From positions 268,217 through 332,216 of the forward strand of contig MU005963.1 in assembly GCA_010093745.1 (NCBI GenBank): a DNA stretch of 64,000 bases, written 5' to 3'. The position numbers were made by a program, and so were the translations under genes. Below, piece by piece: positions 9,510 through 21,229 of this stretch (position 1 is the first letter of the stretch; every line of letters begins with the position of its first letter). The stretch comes from Piedraia hortae CBS 480.64. Its lineage: Eukaryota. The notes under the pieces are model-generated. The model had not been told where the DNA came from, searched no databases, and worked only from the letters and a program-made list of their open reading frames with translations.

Positions 9510-10762
9510 TTACGCAATGTAGTCATGCAGCACCGCCTCCTCGGCGCTGAGGCGCTGTCCAGACTCGTACACGACCAATTTCCTCACAAGGTCGACCGCC
9601 TTTTCATCCGCCCCAGGTAGTAACACATCCCACCCTTTACCTTCATAGCTCGTGAACCTCATCTTCCCCCAATCCGGCATCAACTTCGCTTCGGGCCAAA
9701 TCCCCAAATCCGGCGTCCCCAAATTCTCAAAAATACTCCTAATCAGCGCCAGCTCGCTGCCGAGGTCTCCCGCATCAAACAGCGTCTTCTCATTAAGACA
9801 AACCACCTGTGCAGCCACACATCCCGCAGCCCACATATCAAGCCTAGTCCCATACGCCTGATACCCAAACAACAACTCAACAGGTCTGTAGCACGTCGTA
9901 CCCACCTCCAGTATCTTCCCCTCCACCTTCTCAGACTCAGGATCCCTCGCAGACCACGCGATCCCAAAATCTGCCAAATACGCCGGCCCCGCGGGATTCG
10001 GCAGGAGGATATTCCCCGGCTTGACATCGCGATGTATAATCCCTAGACGATGCAGATGCGCCAACCCTGAAAACAAGTCCCTCAAAACCCTCCGACGCGA
10101 GGAGTCAATCAGCTGGTTGCGTTGTAGAAGTCCATCCAACGCAAACGGCAGGAAGGGAAAAACCAGAACCAAAACCCCCCCCGGCTGGTGGAACGTCTCA
10201 AGCAGCTCAACCACGAATTGCCCCCTTACGGCGTTGAGGATCCGCACCTCACGTCGAGAGTTATGGGGTGGGAGTTCTGCATCCGGACGGGTGAGCTTTA
10301 ACGCGACGCGGCGGCGCAGAGATGTAACATCCGAAGCTGGTTCAACAGCTTCGAAGATTTGGGAGAAGAGCCCGTCGCGGTAGGGTTGTGCATTGGTGTA
10401 CCGGCCGATTTGTCTGTCGTTAAGCAGACTCTCCTCCTTATCACTAACTTCCGTAGAGGTAGGGATACTCCGTAGCAACCCCTCAACTCCTTCTCTACAG
10501 AGGCGGTGATACTCCTCCTTAAAACCAATCAGCCCTACCTAAAACCACTCAAATCAACTCACCGCATCTCGTGCATTAGACCTAATTGTCTCCTCCGTCT
10601 GCTTCGCATACCGTAGTCCCTCTGCCGCGCGGTCGGGATGTGCTTTCTTATATGCATCTGACCTTATCCATTAGCCCTCGCCCCAAAGGTTGTCCCCCAA
10701 ACATACAGCTCCGACACAACCCCAACCCGCTCCCTAAACGTCAACGCAAGTCGAGTCTCCAT
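9510..10762 (-). CDS. CDK-family Ser/Thr kinase, CDK-activating kinase (Cak1/Csk1)-like (introns 10663-10706, 10518-10562)
   Basis: 'VALK', 'PPHNSRRE', 'HRDVKPGN', 'LADFG', 'VGTTCYRPVELLFG', 'DMWAAGC', degenerate Gly-loop. Two short GT-AG introns extend the N-terminus to ATG 10762 (METRLALTFRERV...). Confidence 0.82.
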
Positions 10763-13618: not shown

Positions 13619-16600
13619 CTAAAGCCTAGCAACCCGCTCAGCCAGCGCCTTAACCATCTCCTCCTCCGCCTCCAAATCCCTCAACGTAGTCATCTCTTTT
13701 TCCTTCACCTCCTCACTGACGGTATCAGGCAATGCATCGATAACCCTCCTCTGCGCGCTAATCTCCTTCACCACGGCCTCCACTTTCATCGCAATCTTCC
13801 TCCCTTCGCGGGTTGAATCCCACTCCTTAACGACCAAAAACACATTCGCGTCTGCTGAAACGGAATATCCCGCTACATTCTTCCCCTCAGGAACGTTTCT
13901 CCCGACAAAAATCTCAGAAACCTGCTTCCCCGCTAGTGCCTTCACCGCCGCTACATCAATTTCTTGAGTAGTCTGTATAACCGCCCTGCCGCCTTCTTTG
14001 ATTTTGTATTCTTGGACTAGACTTCTGATTCCGCGTGCACAACCCAAAATTCGTTCGTAGGAGGCTTCCGCCTCTGGGTTGTGGAATTTTGGTTGGAAGG
14101 TGGGAAATGGGGCAAGGACGATTGAGGGAGTGACGTCACCTTCCCGACGAGGGAGACGTTGCCAGAGTTCTTCGGTTAAAAACGGCATGAAGGGGTGCAT
14201 TAGACGTAAAGCGCCGTCGAGACCGGTGTAGAGGGTTTGGAGAACGCTTTCGCGTTCGGTTCCCTCGCGGAGGAGGAATTTGCTGTTCTCGATGAAGACG
14301 TCACAGAGCTCGTAGATCCAGTAGTTGTGCACCGCTTGGGTTGCTTGTGCGAACTCCCGCGCGGCAAGGGCGGTGTTGACTTTGCGCGCAGCATGGGTTA
14401 GTTTGTGGAGGAGCCAGCGCTCGGGTAGGGTGGTCCCTTGGGGGGGTTGGGATGCGGGTTGGAAGCTCTCCGGGAGGTTGCCCAACACGTATTTGGTTGC
14501 CTGGTAGATTTTGTTGCAGAAGTTGCGGTAGCTGCGCATGACTTTGACGTCGAAGTTGATGTCCCCTCCACCCGTGGTGTAGTTGATTAGGCTGAAGCGG
14601 AGGGCGTCGGCGCCGCATTCGTCGATTCCATCCGGGAAGGCGCTGCGTTGCCATTTGCTCGCTCGCTCGACTTCTTTGGGGGCGAGATTGCCTTCTTTGA
14701 GTTTTTGGGTTAGTGCGTCTAGGGTGATGCCGTCCATGATGTCTACCGGGTCGATGACGTTGCCGAGAGATTTGGACATTTTGCGGCCCTCGCTGTCGCG
14801 GATGAGGGAGTGGCAGTAGACTTCTTCGAATGGGACTTTGCCCGTTAGTTTGAGCCCGAAGAAGACCATGCGTGCCACCCAGAAGAAGAGAATGTCCCAT
14901 CCCGTTTCCATGAAGGTGGTGGGGTATAATTTTTGGTAGAGCTGGTTTTCTGTGTTGGGCCACCCAAGGGTTGAGAACGGCCAGAGACCAGATGAGAACC
15001 ACGTGTCGAGACAATCAGCGTCTCTCTCCAGGTCTTTGGGCTCGAAGTCTCTGCCAAACTTCTTCTTGGCCTTTTCGAGTGCCTCGGTCTCGTTTTGGGC
15101 ACACACCCAGTGCTTCTCGTCGGCGTCCATCTGGTCGTTGTCCATCTTGACATACCAGGCGGGTATCTGATGTCCCCACCACAGCTGCCGAGACAGGCAC
15201 CAATCATCAACATTCTCCATCCATCGATAGTAGTTGCTCTCCGCCGACTGGGGCTTGATCTTGATCTTGCCCTGCTTGACCACTTCCAACGCAGGCCCAG
15301 CCAGTGGCTTCATGTGCATCCACCACTGGGGCTTCAGGATAGGCTCAATGACGTCCTTGGACTTGGAACACATGGGGATTGACATCTTGTTGTTCTCCTT
15401 TCCCACATACAGCCCGAGTTTTTCCAGCTCAGCAATAACCCCATACCTCACATCGAAACGCTTCTGGCCCTTGAAGATGCCAGCATTGTCGTTCATCGTG
15501 CCGTCATCGTTCAGAATATTGACAAACTTGAGGCTGTGCTCCTTGCCGCGCCTAAAATCGTTAAAGTCGTGTGCCGGGGTGATCTTGACCGCCCCCGTGC
15601 CAAACTCCCGATCTACAGTCTCGTCGCCAAAGATGGGCAACAACCGGTCGACGAATGGATGCTTGACCTTTTTGCCAATAACATCCTTATACCGCTCATC
15701 ATCAGGATGCACAGCTACACCCGTGTCGCCCAGCATCGTCTCTGGACGCGTAGTGGCTACATGGATGGTGCGGTCAGTTCCCTCGACAGGATACTTGAAC
15801 ATCCAGATGCTGCCGAATTCAATCTTCTTGTCATACCCTGGCACGTCAATCTTGGTCGATCCCTCAAGCTCCTTTTGGTCTACTTCTAGATTGGAAAGGG
15901 CAGTTTCCAGCTTACAGCACCAATTCACGAGACGATTAGCACGATAGATGAGACCTTCATCGTGCAACTGCACAAACGTCTGACGCACAGCTGCGGAAAA
16001 GGTGTCGTCCATGGTAAACGCTTCCTGATCCCAATCCACAGACGCTCCCAGTCGCTTAAGAACGCTGTTGATCTTTTCGTGGTAATCCGTCTTCCACTTC
16101 CACACCTCTTGCACAAACTTGGGTCTGCCGAGATCGTGTCTCGTCTGGCCGTTTATCTTGTACATCATGTTCTCGACCACGCTCTGGGTGGAGATGCCAG
16201 CGTGGTCGCAGCCGGGCACATAGAGCACCGTCTTGCCCAACATGCGGTTCCACCGGATCATGGCATCCTGCAAGCTGGTCGCAAGGGCGTGGCCAATGTG
16301 GAGTTTACCAGTGACGTTTGGAGGCGGGATGGTGATAACAAAGTATCCGGCGTCCTTGACGTTGCCGTCTGCCTTGAACTCCGGTTTATGGAAGCCTTCA
16401 TTCTGCCACCAGTCATACCAAGCGCTCTCCACCACCGACGGGATATATGCCTTGTGGTACTGGTCATCGAGCGGCTTCAGCACTTTCTTCTTGGTCGGCC
16501 CAGTCGTTTCTGCCTGATACGGCGGCAACTTTTCCTCGTCCTTTTTCTTCTTTTCCTTGTCTTTTTGCTTTCCCTGTGCCTGGGCTGCTGCCTCCTTTTG

Positions 16601-16750
16601 CTTCTGTTCTTTCAGTGCGAGCTTGGCCATCTTCGCTTCCTTGGCCTTCTTGTTGGCCTCTTCCTTGGCCTTTTTCTTGTCTGCTTTGGCCTTATCCTCG
16701 GCCGAGTCTTGGCCCATTGGGCGCGTGGCCGGAGTGTCTTGAGCGCTCAT
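13619..16750 (-). CDS. VAS1: Valyl-tRNA synthetase (cytosolic start; see finding for mitochondrial extension)
   Basis: 'PPPNVTGKLHIGH', 'GCDHAGISTQ', 'TTRPETMLGD', 'WCLSRQLWWGH', 'DTWFSSGLWP', 'KMSKS'. Confidence 0.98.
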   Translation of the reverse strand: MSAQDTPATRPMGQDSAEDKAKADKKKAKEEANKKAKEAKMAKLALKEQKQKEAAAQAQGKQKDKEKKKKDEEKLPPYQAETTGPTKKKVLKPLDDQYHKAYIPSVVESAWYDWWQNEGFHKPEFKADGNVKDAGYFVITIPPPNVTGKLHIGHALATSLQDAMIRWNRMLGKTVLYVPGCDHAGISTQSVVENMMYKINGQTRHDLGRPKFVQEVWKWKTDYHEKINSVLKRLGASVDWDQEAFTMDDTFSAAVRQTFVQLHDEGLIYRANRLVNWCCKLETALSNLEVDQKELEGSTKIDVPGYDKKIEFGSIWMFKYPVEGTDRTIHVATTRPETMLGDTGVAVHPDDERYKDVIGKKVKHPFVDRLLPIFGDETVDREFGTGAVKITPAHDFNDFRRGKEHSLKFVNILNDDGTMNDNAGIFKGQKRFDVRYGVIAELEKLGLYVGKENNKMSIPMCSKSKDVIEPILKPQWWMHMKPLAGPALEVVKQGKIKIKPQSAESNYYRWMENVDDWCLSRQLWWGHQIPAWYVKMDNDQMDADEKHWVCAQNETEALEKAKKKFGRDFEPKDLERDADCLDTWFSSGLWPFSTLGWPNTENQLYQKLYPTTFMETGWDILFFWVARMVFFGLKLTGKVPFEEVYCHSLIRDSEGRKMSKSLGNVIDPVDIMDGITLDALTQKLKEGNLAPKEVERASKWQRSAFPDGIDECGADALRFSLINYTTGGGDINFDVKVMRSYRNFCNKIYQATKYVLGNLPESFQPASQPPQGTTLPERWLLHKLTHAARKVNTALAAREFAQATQAVHNYWIYELCDVFIENSKFLLREGTERESVLQTLYTGLDGALRLMHPFMPFLTEELWQRLPRREGDVTPSIVLAPFPTFQPKFHNPEAEASYERILGCARGIRSLVQEYKIKEGGRAVIQTTQEIDVAAVKALAGKQVSEIFVGRNVPEGKNVAGYSVSADANVFLVVKEWDSTREGRKIAMKVEAVVKEISAQRRVIDALPDTVSEEVKEKEMTTLRDLEAEEEMVKALAERVARL

Positions 16751-16989
16751 GGCAAGGACGCTATAGAATCGCCTGACTGGAACAAGGCGCCGGAATGGCG
16801 CGTACCGCAGAATGATTTTCTGGTGATGTCGATGGCGCTAAGGCGGACTAGTAACGCTGTCCCCGCGCTAACCTCTTTCGGCTAACATATATCAACCGCG
16901 TGCCCCCGATGGATCACGAATATCAGTGACGATGGCCGTCTGGCCCGTCTCGATGAATGATTCCGTCCAGGTAGCTGCCGTAAACAAAA

Positions 16990-19203
16990 ATGATGTCCTC
17001 ACGCGTCCTTTCGCGGCTGCTGCCAACGGCCGAAGACAACTTCTCCATCCACGTAGACCAAGAGCAAACGGACGTCCATGTAGAGCCATACCACGACGAT
17101 GACCATGTGCCAGAGGACCTGCTCTACGATGCGGACGCCCAGGATAACGCAGATAGACGGCTCGAAAGCGGTGACTGGAGAGACAACGAAGACGTTCCAG
17201 AGTCTTTTCTGCTCGAAACTAACCCAACTACAAGAAAAGATGCAACCTCGCAATGGAGAAGGGCTCAGCAACAGTACAGCATGCACCAGATTTCCCCAAG
17301 AAGACACGCATCCCCAGAAGAAAATGCCCGTGCCAATGCCATGTGGACGTTTACCAACGTTAGCAACCTGGATGCGTTTCTGCGGGAAGTCTACCATTAC
17401 TACGTGAACCATGGCATATGGTCAATTTTCCTCAAACGAACGATAACATTGCTGACCGAAGCCTTTGTCTTTAGCTTTGCCATGTTTCTGAGCACCTGCA
17501 TCGACTATAGCAAGATCCCTGCAGGGAAGAAGATGGAAGACGTCCTCATCCCCAAATGCATGGCCAAGGCATCGTGGATAAAGAATGCAGCAGTCTTCAT
17601 CTTCATCGTCTACTGGTGCCTGAAGCTAGTGTCCAGCTTCAAAGACTGTCGTAGGCTCTACCACATGCACAACTTTTTCCAGCACGTCCTCGGAATCAAT
17701 GACGAGGACATACAAACCGCCACCTGGGTAGAGGTGGTTGACGGTCTAGTGAAGATCAAAGACGCTAACATCGCCACCGCAAAGCCAGGTTCTGCCCGCA
17801 AGTACACCAGATATGCCAAGTCCCAGCAGCGGTTAGATGCCGAGAGCATCGCAAACCGTCTCATGCGGCAGGAAAATTACTGCATTGCAATGTACAACAA
17901 AGACATCCTGGACATGGCACTGCCGTTACCATTTGTCGGGAGTCGCCAATTCTTCTCCAAGAGTCTAGAATGGTGCATCAATCTCTGTCTCACAAACTTC
18001 ATCTTCGACGAGCAAGGTAACATCCGCGCCTTCTGTCTGGACCACAAAAACCGCCATAAACTTGTCCAGACGCTTAAGACTCGTCTACGTTTCGCTGCCT
18101 TAATGAGCGTCATCATCGCACCCTTCAACATCCTCTGCTTCTGCATCTTATTCTTCCTAAAATACTACACCGAATTCACTCGCAACCCATCCAAAGTCGG
18201 AGCTAGGGCATTCACGCCCTTTGCCGAGTGGAAAATCCGCCAATTCAACGAACTCGACCACCTCTTCCAACGCCGACTCCGCATGGCCATGCCCTTTGCA
18301 GACGACTACCTCAAACAATTCCCCAAAAACAAAACCGACCAAATGGCCCGGTTCATCGCATTCATCAGCGGTTCCTTCGCTGCCGTTCTCGCCCTCGCAA
18401 CGCTCTTCGACCCGGAACTCTTCCTAACCTTTGAAATCACCCCCGGCAAGACCGCCATTTTCTACCTCTCCCTAACCCTTGGCACATTCACAGTGGCCTA
18501 CAGCATGGCCACCGAAGAAACCGAAGTCCACGACCCAGTCCTTCACCTCAACAACGTTCTCCTCTACACAAACTACAAACCCCGCCACTGGAAAGGACGG
18601 ATGCACAGCAGCGAAGTTCGCGCAGAGTTCTCGTCAATGTACCAAGTTCGCGTCATAATCTTCCTGGAAGAGCTCCTAAGCCTTATCGTCGCCCCCTGGA
18701 TTTTACTCCGCACGGCAGAGACACGCTGCGAGCGCATCATTGATTTCTTCCGCGAGAATTCCGTCCACGTGGATGGGATAGGTTATCAGTGCAACTTTGC
18801 TGTCTTCAACTTCAAGAAAGACGTCAATGCAGAGGATCCGACTTCTGTCCTCCAGGAGAGGCAGCAGCATTCCGCCCCGCAGGACGATAAGATGGCTTCG
18901 TCGATGCAGAATTTTGCGCGTTATTATGAGAGGAGGGGGGGCAGGGGGAGAAGGCCGCATGAGTGGCAGCCCCAGCCCACGTGGCCTTCGCTACTGGAGG
19001 AGCCGTTGAGGAGGACAAGGGCGGCGGAGCCGAGGTCGGGGAGGGGGAATGGTAAGGCTACTGCCGTGAGTCAGAGTGTTATGACGGAGGAGAGGGAGGA
19101 TAGTGGGAGTGAGGAGAAGGAGGAGGAGGATGTGTTGGGACGGGCAGGTGTACTGGGCATGTTGTATCAGGCGGGAAAGGTTAAGGGGGCTTCGGTTTTG
19201 TAG
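16990..19203 (+). CDS. ATG9: Autophagy protein Atg9
   Basis: 'NVSNLDAFLREVYHYY', 'RLDAESIANRLMRQENY', 'RQFNELDHLFQRRL', 'IIDFFRENSVHVDGIG'. Confidence 0.95.
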   Translation: MMSSRVLSRLLPTAEDNFSIHVDQEQTDVHVEPYHDDDHVPEDLLYDADAQDNADRRLESGDWRDNEDVPESFLLETNPTTRKDATSQWRRAQQQYSMHQISPRRHASPEENARANAMWTFTNVSNLDAFLREVYHYYVNHGIWSIFLKRTITLLTEAFVFSFAMFLSTCIDYSKIPAGKKMEDVLIPKCMAKASWIKNAAVFIFIVYWCLKLVSSFKDCRRLYHMHNFFQHVLGINDEDIQTATWVEVVDGLVKIKDANIATAKPGSARKYTRYAKSQQRLDAESIANRLMRQENYCIAMYNKDILDMALPLPFVGSRQFFSKSLEWCINLCLTNFIFDEQGNIRAFCLDHKNRHKLVQTLKTRLRFAALMSVIIAPFNILCFCILFFLKYYTEFTRNPSKVGARAFTPFAEWKIRQFNELDHLFQRRLRMAMPFADDYLKQFPKNKTDQMARFIAFISGSFAAVLALATLFDPELFLTFEITPGKTAIFYLSLTLGTFTVAYSMATEETEVHDPVLHLNNVLLYTNYKPRHWKGRMHSSEVRAEFSSMYQVRVIIFLEELLSLIVAPWILLRTAETRCERIIDFFRENSVHVDGIGYQCNFAVFNFKKDVNAEDPTSVLQERQQHSAPQDDKMASSMQNFARYYERRGGRGRRPHEWQPQPTWPSLLEEPLRRTRAAEPRSGRGNGKATAVSQSVMTEEREDSGSEEKEEEDVLGRAGVLGMLYQAGKVKGASVL

Positions 19204-21229
19204 GAGATAGGTTTTATTGGAGATGGTGAAGACAGTTCTTAACTGGTTAGTTCGCTTTTTCTCCAGTACATTTGGGAGCGAGCAACAGGCTGACTATGAG
19301 TTGATAAAGAGAGCCGCCTCAACTTCAGGGTCTTCCACCGAGTCGATCTTTTGCCATGAACTTTTGCAAATAGATACGTTACCATTGCTTATATGTACAC
19401 CTGGGCACCCACAATTCATAACCCGACGAGCACGAGTAGTCTCCTCCATCTAGATGGATTTGATAGTTTTCTCCATACTCCAGATTGAGACATGGGCTCG
19501 GTATCAACTTGCTCTGACAAGAAAATCTACCCATCCTTGGATTATTTCAAGGGACGAAACGGTGCGAGATGACTGCAATCTGCTGCTACGTCAATGTCCC
19601 TCAGTGATCATGGTTATCTTAAGCCGAGGAACCATCTCTGGTCGTGTTGATCGAGCCCCGTGGTACCTATTCACCCAGAGATATGCCCGTGGATCGTTCT
19701 AGGGCTCCGGAAACTGCTGTTTGCCTCCAGCTCCGATAATTCCATGACAATATCGGGATTGTCCCTGTATACCTTAATCATGGTCAGGTGGGAAAAGAAC
19801 AAGGATTTTAGTCGATTGCGCATGCTGGTTCTCGGTGAGGTTCTCGAATTATGGGCAATGGCTCGTTTGCAGTACAGCTGATCTCGATTTGGTCCCTATT
19901 TGTGCCGACGAACCGTGTGTCCGGTCTTTGCGCGTTGAGCTTACCCGGGAACTTAACGAGCAGTGCACCAGGCAGGTGGGAGGCAGTTTCTGCAGGCGAG
20001 ATGTCCCAACTTCCCATAGCTTGATATGAGATCTATGCTCAATGCCGCACTGAACAGTAAAGATTTGAAACTTCCTTGCTGGAACCCAGTCCTGCAACTG
20101 CATTGGGAGCGAGTTGCAGGGCCAAACGCCTATTTGCTTTTGTATGGGGACAGCCGGCGTGCTACCTGGTTGTCGTAGCGATCCATGGCGATCTCCTTGG
20201 TCGAATGCGCTGTCATCTTGATGATCTCATCTGGATAATGGTGAGAGCACTGTATTCGCCAGCAGGACCCGCGCGCAGGTCTGTAAACCTACGGTTCCTC
20301 TGCAAATTTTCCATCATCCTATGATTGGCAGTGGAGACGCCATATGCGTAGGACTTGTGCAGGGATGATACCACGTAAAGCGTCGATGAAATCGCGACGT
20401 ATCTACTGCACCCAGCAATTACCACCCTATAGACTGACCATAACCAATAACAAACAAACAACATCCCAATCCCTATGCTACCCACCTCCCATGCGCAATA
20501 GTCCCTTCTTCGCCCACCACCAAACTCCCACCGATGAAACGAAAAAATTCCAAAGATTCCCTGCCGATCCGAAGACTGACGGGAGCGGTCAAACTGTAAA
20601 AGTTTTCAACTAGCAAAAACGCAATCTCGGACGAATCCTCACTGATATGCGTACTGCCCGTGCACTCGGATGGAGAAGGAGAGAAAAGAAGAAGGGGAAG
20701 CGGGGTTATATGTGGGATAACCACGCTAGTAGACGCTAAGGCAAATCAGCAGGGATGGCGGGGTGGCCAATAGTCACGGCGACTTTTTGAATGGAGCAAT
20801 TAGAGGAGGGCTGGGTTTTAGCTACTTGGAGATTTACGGATTGGGCGAATGATTTTGATGAGGGAGTAGGAGAGGATTGGGGGTTCCTGTGTACGCCCCA
20901 GAAACTGTGCTGATGTGGAGAAGAAGGGCTGGATGCACGGTATAAATGACGGATAAACATGAACGGGGTGGGAGAAATGTTCCCGTAAGAGCCAGGGAGG
21001 GTGGCAGTTCCATGGAGCTGTCAAACCGGGGTGGTAACTCCACTGCTAAAGGTAATGACCTCACCTCGTCAGGACTGACTTTGCTCGACCCCAGAGCGGA
21101 GGGTACGTTGGGTCTCCGTTTGCCTTAGGTATTTTGTAGACACTGCGTTCTACACCTTGCTATCATTCTGTGACCATCGAGGCGTAAACCCTCAATACCA
21201 CTGATTTCTACAGATCCCCGAGATTTTTC

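Follow-up and report, generated by a model that had tools for sequence, protein, structure and literature searches.

The window, a stretch of 64,000 nucleotides of Piedraia hortae CBS 480.64, carries a valyl-tRNA synthetase (ValRS) gene on its minus strand and, divergent from it, the autophagy gene ATG9 on the plus strand. The ATG of ATG9 (16990) and that of ValRS (16750) are 240 bp apart. The features considered here are as follows, with the evidence for each in brackets.

13619..16750, minus strand: ValRS coding sequence from the first ATG to the stop, 1043 aa plus stop, the presumed cytosolic isoform (ORF, Pfam, orthologs and RNA contig)
16751..16837, minus strand: in-frame extension of 29 codons without AUG, a candidate mitochondrial presequence (sequence, translation and chance tests)
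16760..16774, minus strand: codons for R-R-F-Y-S, a putative processing motif of the R-2/R-3 type (translation)
16808..16816, minus strand: stacked near-cognate codons ATC 16816, ATT 16813 and CTG 16810, the candidate mitochondrial start or starts (codon scan)
16838..16840, minus strand: in-frame TAG, the 5' boundary of the extension (sequence and translation)
16868..16888, minus strand: in-frame uORF of 6 codons, from ATG 16888 through MLAERG to TAG (ATG scan and translation)
16790..16952, no strand assigned: stretch without any RNA-derived contig between the ValRS and ATG9 transcripts, the presumed bidirectional promoter (contig ends)
16990..19203, plus strand: ATG9 (autophagy protein 9), the divergent neighbour (PF04109, E 1.6e-185)

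ValRS is encoded by one unbroken, intron-free minus-strand ORF that runs from ATG 16750 to the stop at 13619. Pfam searches identified the domains tRNA-synt_1 (PF00133, E 7e-152) and Anticodon_1 (PF08264, E 2e-28), and the HIGH (H151/G153/H154) and KMSKS (K657-S661) residues fall in invariant alignment columns. The gene is a class I ValRS of the fungal VAS1 type, with both the catalytic and the anticodon-binding domains present.

The open frame extends beyond the first ATG. The stop-to-stop ORF (13619..16837, minus strand) encodes 1072 aa, and the 29 sense codons from 16837 to 16751 contain no ATG and read RHRHHQKIILRYAPFRRLVPVRRFYSVLA in the ValRS frame. This peptide has 8 R/K and 0 D/E, carries RFY|S four residues ahead of the Met, and reaches a maximum hydrophobic moment of 0.60 over 11 residues, as estimated with simple measures. 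The codons ATC 16816, ATT 16813 and CTG 16810 each have A at -3, and AGG 16774 is the sole further near-cognate codon within the extension. Therefore, this ValRS lacks the two in-frame AUGs flanking a presequence that define a DualAUG gene, and it combines an AUG-less in-frame extension with near-cognate codons in good context. An earlier, sequence-only reading of this DNA had described the same anatomy, and each part of it was borne out: the open frame by the sequence, its translation and the stop-to-stop ORF, the basic, acid-free composition and the RRFY|S cleavage pattern by residue counts, and the A at -3 of ATC, ATT and CTG (16816-16808) by inspection of each codon context.

The same enzyme family provides the closest known systems. 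Yeast VAS1 is one gene that serves both compartments from two in-frame AUGs (PMC2909995, PMC6582344). In Table S5 of Wallace et al. 2020, the DualAUG class includes the ValRS of C. albicans, of two Cryptococcus species, of N. crassa and of S. cerevisiae, so that every dual-localised species in that table has a DualAUG ValRS, and all of the characterised fungal dual-localised ValRS listed there have an N-terminal extension (PMC7049704). N. crassa has one ValRS row in this table, and in S. pombe, which has a separate mitochondrial ValRS, the VAS1 homolog is entered as Cyto (PMC7049704). As far as these tabulated data reach, one ValRS gene serves both compartments in fungi by means of an N-terminal presequence, and we strongly expect that a Pezizomycotina ValRS gene must supply the mitochondria. 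The window gene resembles S. cerevisiae VAS1 and N. crassa cyt-20 (NCU01965), both of which serve cytosol and mitochondria from one gene. It shares with cyt-20, as that gene appears in the same source, a basic extension that directly precedes the cytosolic Met and has an end of the R-x-Y/F-S type (PMC7049704). It differs from both in that theirs carry two in-frame AUGs, whereas its extension has none.

An enzyme that starts at AUG 16750 could also enter mitochondria with no presequence to be cleaved, by means of an internal or cryptic signal or by piggy-back import, in which case the upstream frame would be irrelevant. Such import would reconcile a single gene with the short transcripts described below. 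The residues directly after the Met are acidic and Lys-rich (MSAQDTPATRPMGQDSAEDK...), unlike a targeting signal, and the characterised fungal ValRS of Table S5 use an N-terminal extension (PMC7049704). We therefore consider this route improbable.

We asked how often such an extension would arise by chance. That the frame is open says nothing by itself about coding: dinucleotide shuffling of the 87 nt left 10905 of 20000 sequences (55%) free of stops. Peptides with at least 8 basic and no acidic residues made up 110 of the 20000 shuffles and 28 of the 1904 stop-free 29-mers drawn from the six frames of the window; when R.[FYL][SAT] within the last 12 residues was added, these counts fell to 8 of 20000 and 4 of 1904. 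Moreover, of the 19 window ORFs that reach 250 aa or more, ValRS alone is preceded in frame by such a peptide. The composition and motif criteria were chosen post hoc, with the sequence already seen, and these rarity figures are therefore indicative only. Within that limit, the composition and cleavage-type motif of the extension are rare by chance, and they are carried by the window's one gene that is expected to need a presequence.

These figures bear on the most serious alternative, namely that the extension is an untranslated 5' flank or leader that looks like a presequence by chance or as a recent relic. The gene would then be cytosolic only, and mitochondrial ValRS would come from elsewhere, whether a second gene of the S. 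pombe kind (PMC7049704) or a paralog retained after a duplication of the genome. The high proportion of open shuffles is in keeping with this alternative, and the S. pombe arrangement provides a precedent for it; the rarity of the composition and motif, on the one gene in the window where they are expected, and the single ValRS row of N. crassa in Table S5 (PMC7049704) argue against it.

Relatives of the protein were collected by full-length and N-terminal searches of a protein collection, which gave 242 proteins in total. The best full-length matches are Dothideomycete ValRS with at most 70% identity (82% at best over the conserved part). All 120 full-length matches listed are ValRS of the same type and at least 56% identical, which argues against a second source of the mitochondrial enzyme. 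In a tree of 40 rows hand-picked from the 242 proteins, chiefly those with a species name together with the unnamed P0029 and P0032, the window ValRS nests with Friedmanniomyces and Neophaeotheca (SH-aLRT 95). Its identity to Dothideomycete ValRS and its placement in the tree mark it as an ortholog of the fungal dual-localised ValRS. Its terminal branch measures 0.47 substitutions per site against a median of 0.14 (3.4-fold), although it is nested in a well-sampled clade. In addition, it lacks the N-terminus of about 45 aa (MALNAASHN...) common to almost all relatives, and nothing like this segment was found in the other frames of the 240-bp spacer.

The long branch and the missing N-terminal segment would also fit a specialised cytosolic paralog, and such subfunctionalisation is what the untranslated-leader alternative would lead one to expect. 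The same branch length can be read in the opposite direction. Over 0.47 substitutions per site an untranslated relic should decay, and therefore the presequence-like character of the extension suggests ongoing selection.

Presequence-like extensions appear at the same place in other members of the class. The MAxN start motif was present in 136 fetched proteins, of which 124 start right at the motif and 12 are extended in front of it. In P0029, P0032, P0069, P0121 and P0200, the extension starts with M, is basic and ends in [RK]-x-[FY]-[ST] 2-4 residues before the cytosolic Met. An R-x-Y|S-like motif, likewise 2-4 residues before the cytosolic Met, is also present in P0127 and at the loci L002 and L003. 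The presequence of P0127 is close to those of P0029 and P0032, but it has V at the position of their starting M. In the Pleosporales-like P0169, P0170 and L001, an in-frame ATG lies about 60 codons upstream of the usual start.

The loci came from a metagenome scan for ortholog DNA, in which 583 of 590 matched stretches proved to be ValRS relatives and 80 were kept. Only L001-L003 among the kept 80 are fungal-like (56-67% identity), and the other 77 (37-46%) were left unused. In these three fungal loci, the upstream frames are open for 82, 88 and 91 codons. An ATG occurs at -60 in L001 and, in weak context, at -56 in L003, which also carries an ATA at -23. L002 shows no ATG in its 88 open codons, and its ATA, likewise at -23, has A at -3. 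A frame that stays open for so long (L002, 2172-2435) is unlikely by chance. Separately, a short intron follows the first nine or ten codons (MALNAASHN) in two distant relatives, at about 2466-2519 in L002 and about 1430-1491 in L003.

Judged from these sequences, presequence-like extensions at exactly this position appear to be common in the class, both with and without an AUG. The order of residues is another matter. Against shuffles of its own residues, the window extension showed no significant order-specific similarity to any of nine ortholog extensions: the best three ranked 69, 218 and 270 of 5000, and the other six at least 723 of 5000. What the window extension and the ortholog presequences appear to have in common is thus position and character, with no demonstrable sequence homology. 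The ortholog comparison proposed by the sequence-only reading therefore gave a divided answer, in which position, character and the coexistence of AUG and AUG-less forms are shared and residue order is not, the latter being in keeping with an untranslated leader.

L001 (2497-2676), P0169 and P0170 have a long basic extension that begins at an upstream ATG, while the models P0111 and P0122 of related species start downstream. AUG-started ValRS presequences may thus be missed by annotation too, as in P0111 and P0122, which begin at the downstream Met.

RNA evidence came from the assembled contigs of one public run, X1, the only RNA-derived assembly used. We judged X1 to be RNA because one contig splices out a 45-nt GTGAGT...AG intron (10518-10562, minus strand) of a minus-strand gene (ORF 9510-10538) and keeps the ORF in frame. 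The ValRS contig spans 14132-16789 with 0 differences and a k-mer depth of about 620. Its 5' end, which is neither a joint nor a loose end, lies 39 nt upstream of the ATG, and another 19-27 nt would be needed to reach CTG, ATT and ATC. The contig of ATG9 begins at 16953, and 16790-16952 is without any contig; the depth of 407.9 in the bin 16538-17004 is the contribution of the ValRS and ATG9 contigs alone. A comparable uncovered gap (20673-20846) is present at another divergent gene pair. The gap of just 163 bp between the ValRS and ATG9 contigs suggests a very compact bidirectional promoter. A TATATG element occurs on the ValRS strand at about 16890-16885.

The contig end indicates that the bulk of ValRS mRNA begins near 16790-16810, inside the presequence-coding part, although it is only a hint because contigs cannot fix a 5' end. 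It likewise hints that transcripts including 16808-16816 are at most a small minority in the X1 sample, and a minor class of this kind is compatible with the contigs. Since the contig stops at 16789, initiation by simple leaky scanning is improbable for the bulk mRNA, and a minor class of longer transcripts would be needed. A contig end downstream of every usable near-cognate codon is also what an untranslated leader would give. The sequence-only reading had proposed that one gene supplies both isoforms by leaky near-cognate initiation. The gene identity, the ortholog presequences, the lack of an upstream AUG and the rarity of the extension support that proposal in part, and leaky scanning in its simple form on the bulk mRNA is the part that is unlikely. 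The same reading had named transcription starts that all lie downstream of 16808 as an outcome that would count against it, and the data go part of the way towards this, with the sole ValRS contig ending at 16789 and 16790-16952 uncovered.

Yeast VAS1 reportedly has two transcript classes (Chatton 1988). The contig pattern of the window gene resembles them, and a 5' end inside the presequence-coding part would match this arrangement. The pattern fits equally well a gene that has no mitochondrial form any more.

The spacer was scanned for conventional starts. The only minus-strand ATGs between 16995 and 16700 are 16888, 16750 and 16717, and no ATG in any frame was found on the minus strand from 16887 to 16751. 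The in-frame ATG 16888 is separated from the extension by two stops. No GT..AG pair with a canonical (GTRNGN) donor was found in the spacer upstream of 16805. Scanning to AUG 16750 is thus unobstructed, because 16887-16751 contains neither an ATG nor a canonical-donor intron. The uORF at 16868-16888 is relevant only for transcripts that begin beyond 16888. A functional hairpin downstream of the near-cognate codons was considered and rejected: a GCGCC/GGCGC stem lies 13-16 nt past AUU/AUC, and its folding is no better than that of shuffles (z -0.67 and -1.26).

These scans bear on the idea that an upstream AUG exon is spliced onto the extension and that the mitochondrial isoform starts conventionally. 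Introns near the 5' end do occur in the family, as L002 and L003 illustrate with an intron right after the first nine codons. In the window, only 240 bp separate the ValRS and ATG9 ATGs, the sole ATG between them opens a 6-codon uORF, no canonical donor is available, and the RNA contig shows neither a joint nor a loose end at its 5' terminus. A hidden intron or upstream AUG exon was thus rejected, and we regard it as highly improbable; the sequence-only reading had named such an exon as a refutation, and none emerged from the scan of the 240 bp for canonical donors and ATGs. Even taken together, mechanisms other than a non-AUG isoform or an untranslated leader seem unlikely.

Taken together, we propose a non-AUG-initiated mitochondrial ValRS isoform made from a minor long transcript as the somewhat better supported explanation of this locus. 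The frame anatomy, the composition, the codon contexts and the lack of an AUG or canonical-donor intron upstream are direct observations, and the proposal would further entail that the extension is translated and imported, that it is cleaved at the site given below, that the long transcripts exist and that the organism has no other ValRS gene. In this model, the 29 codons upstream of the ValRS AUG would be a mitochondrial presequence that lacks its own AUG. Where a transcript starts upstream of about 16820, some of the scanning ribosomes would initiate at CUG 16810, AUU 16813 or AUC 16816. The product, roughly MLRYAPFRRLVPVRRFY|S..., would be imported and cut at R-F-Y|S. Ribosomes that pass the near-cognate codons, together with all of those on the shorter, dominant transcripts, would start at AUG 16750 and produce the cytosolic enzyme. 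The evidence against this isoform is that the contig ends short of the candidate codons, that significant sequence-level conservation was not detected, and that the long branch and altered N-terminus may mark a specialised paralog. An untranslated leader, with which these points agree, is a lesser but still substantial possibility.

Non-AUG initiation of this kind has been reported for other synthetases (aaRS). Near-cognate starts are known for mitochondrial forms of other aaRS in fungi (PMC7049704). Yeast ALA1 starts at ACG and GRS1 at TTG (PMC2909995, PMC6582344). In yeast ALA1 reporters, activity relative to ATG was about 50% with CTG or ATT and about 20% with ATC, and redundant non-AUG codons outperformed one alone (PMC2909995). 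The window gene is like ALA1 (redundant ACG ACG) and GRS1 (UUG) in having an in-frame extension without AUG through which a cytosolic aaRS would gain a targeting signal, and like ALA1 in its adjacent redundant near-cognate codons with a favourable A at -3 (PMC2909995, PMC6582344). In contrast to ALA1 and GRS1, which are other synthetases and experimentally verified, it is a candidate from sequence whose RNA contig falls short of the start codons.

A further group of examples is the "DualNCC" genes, including Cryptococcus LeuRS (ACG) and ArgRS (AUU) and S. pombe GlyRS, in which the mitochondrial aaRS form likewise comes from a near-cognate codon (PMC7049704). According to the same source, weak AUGs and near-cognate codons have been swapped repeatedly among fungi, and a similar exchange is suggested here by P0029 and P0032 against P0127, L002 and the window. 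The DualNCC genes differ from our case in that they are backed by TSS and ribosome profiling, and ValRS itself is DualAUG in that table (PMC7049704). A full-text literature search brought up no fungal ValRS isoform with a non-AUG start, and a term search of Ivanov et al. 2017 gave no mitochondrial or aaRS case (PMC5487733).

We tentatively hypothesize that, in Dothideomycetes and lichen-forming relatives, AUG and near-cognate codons have replaced one another repeatedly as the start of the ValRS presequence. The series behind this idea consists of CUG/AUU/AUC in the window, AUA in L002 and GUG in P0127, versus the AUG of P0029, P0032 and P0069. Were such turnover real, most public models, of which 124 of 136 start at the cytosolic Met, would miss the mitochondrial isoform, and the mitochondrial supply in this lineage would depend on both a rare long transcript and the efficiency of near-cognate initiation.

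If the non-AUG isoform exists, annotation based on AUG starts cannot see an essential mitochondrial enzyme of this fungus, and ValRS joins the fungal aaRS that use near-cognate starts. AUG, GUG, AUA and CUG/AUU/AUC at comparable positions would then form a natural series in which to follow the evolutionary exchange of weak starts. Such an isoform would involve no new mechanism, and specialists would be little surprised, because the principle is already well established for other aaRS.

Two further features of the X1 assembly were observed. The ValRS contig is broken at 14102-14161 by two alternative 60-nt contigs (depth 883 and 8.6), one of which differs by one letter; these alternatives are a minor variant or a sequencing-error bubble. 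Elsewhere, one contig joins 11212 to 19111, skipping 7898 nt with GT..GT ends and 22 nt on the short side, and this join is probably a chimeric or repeat-driven assembly artefact.
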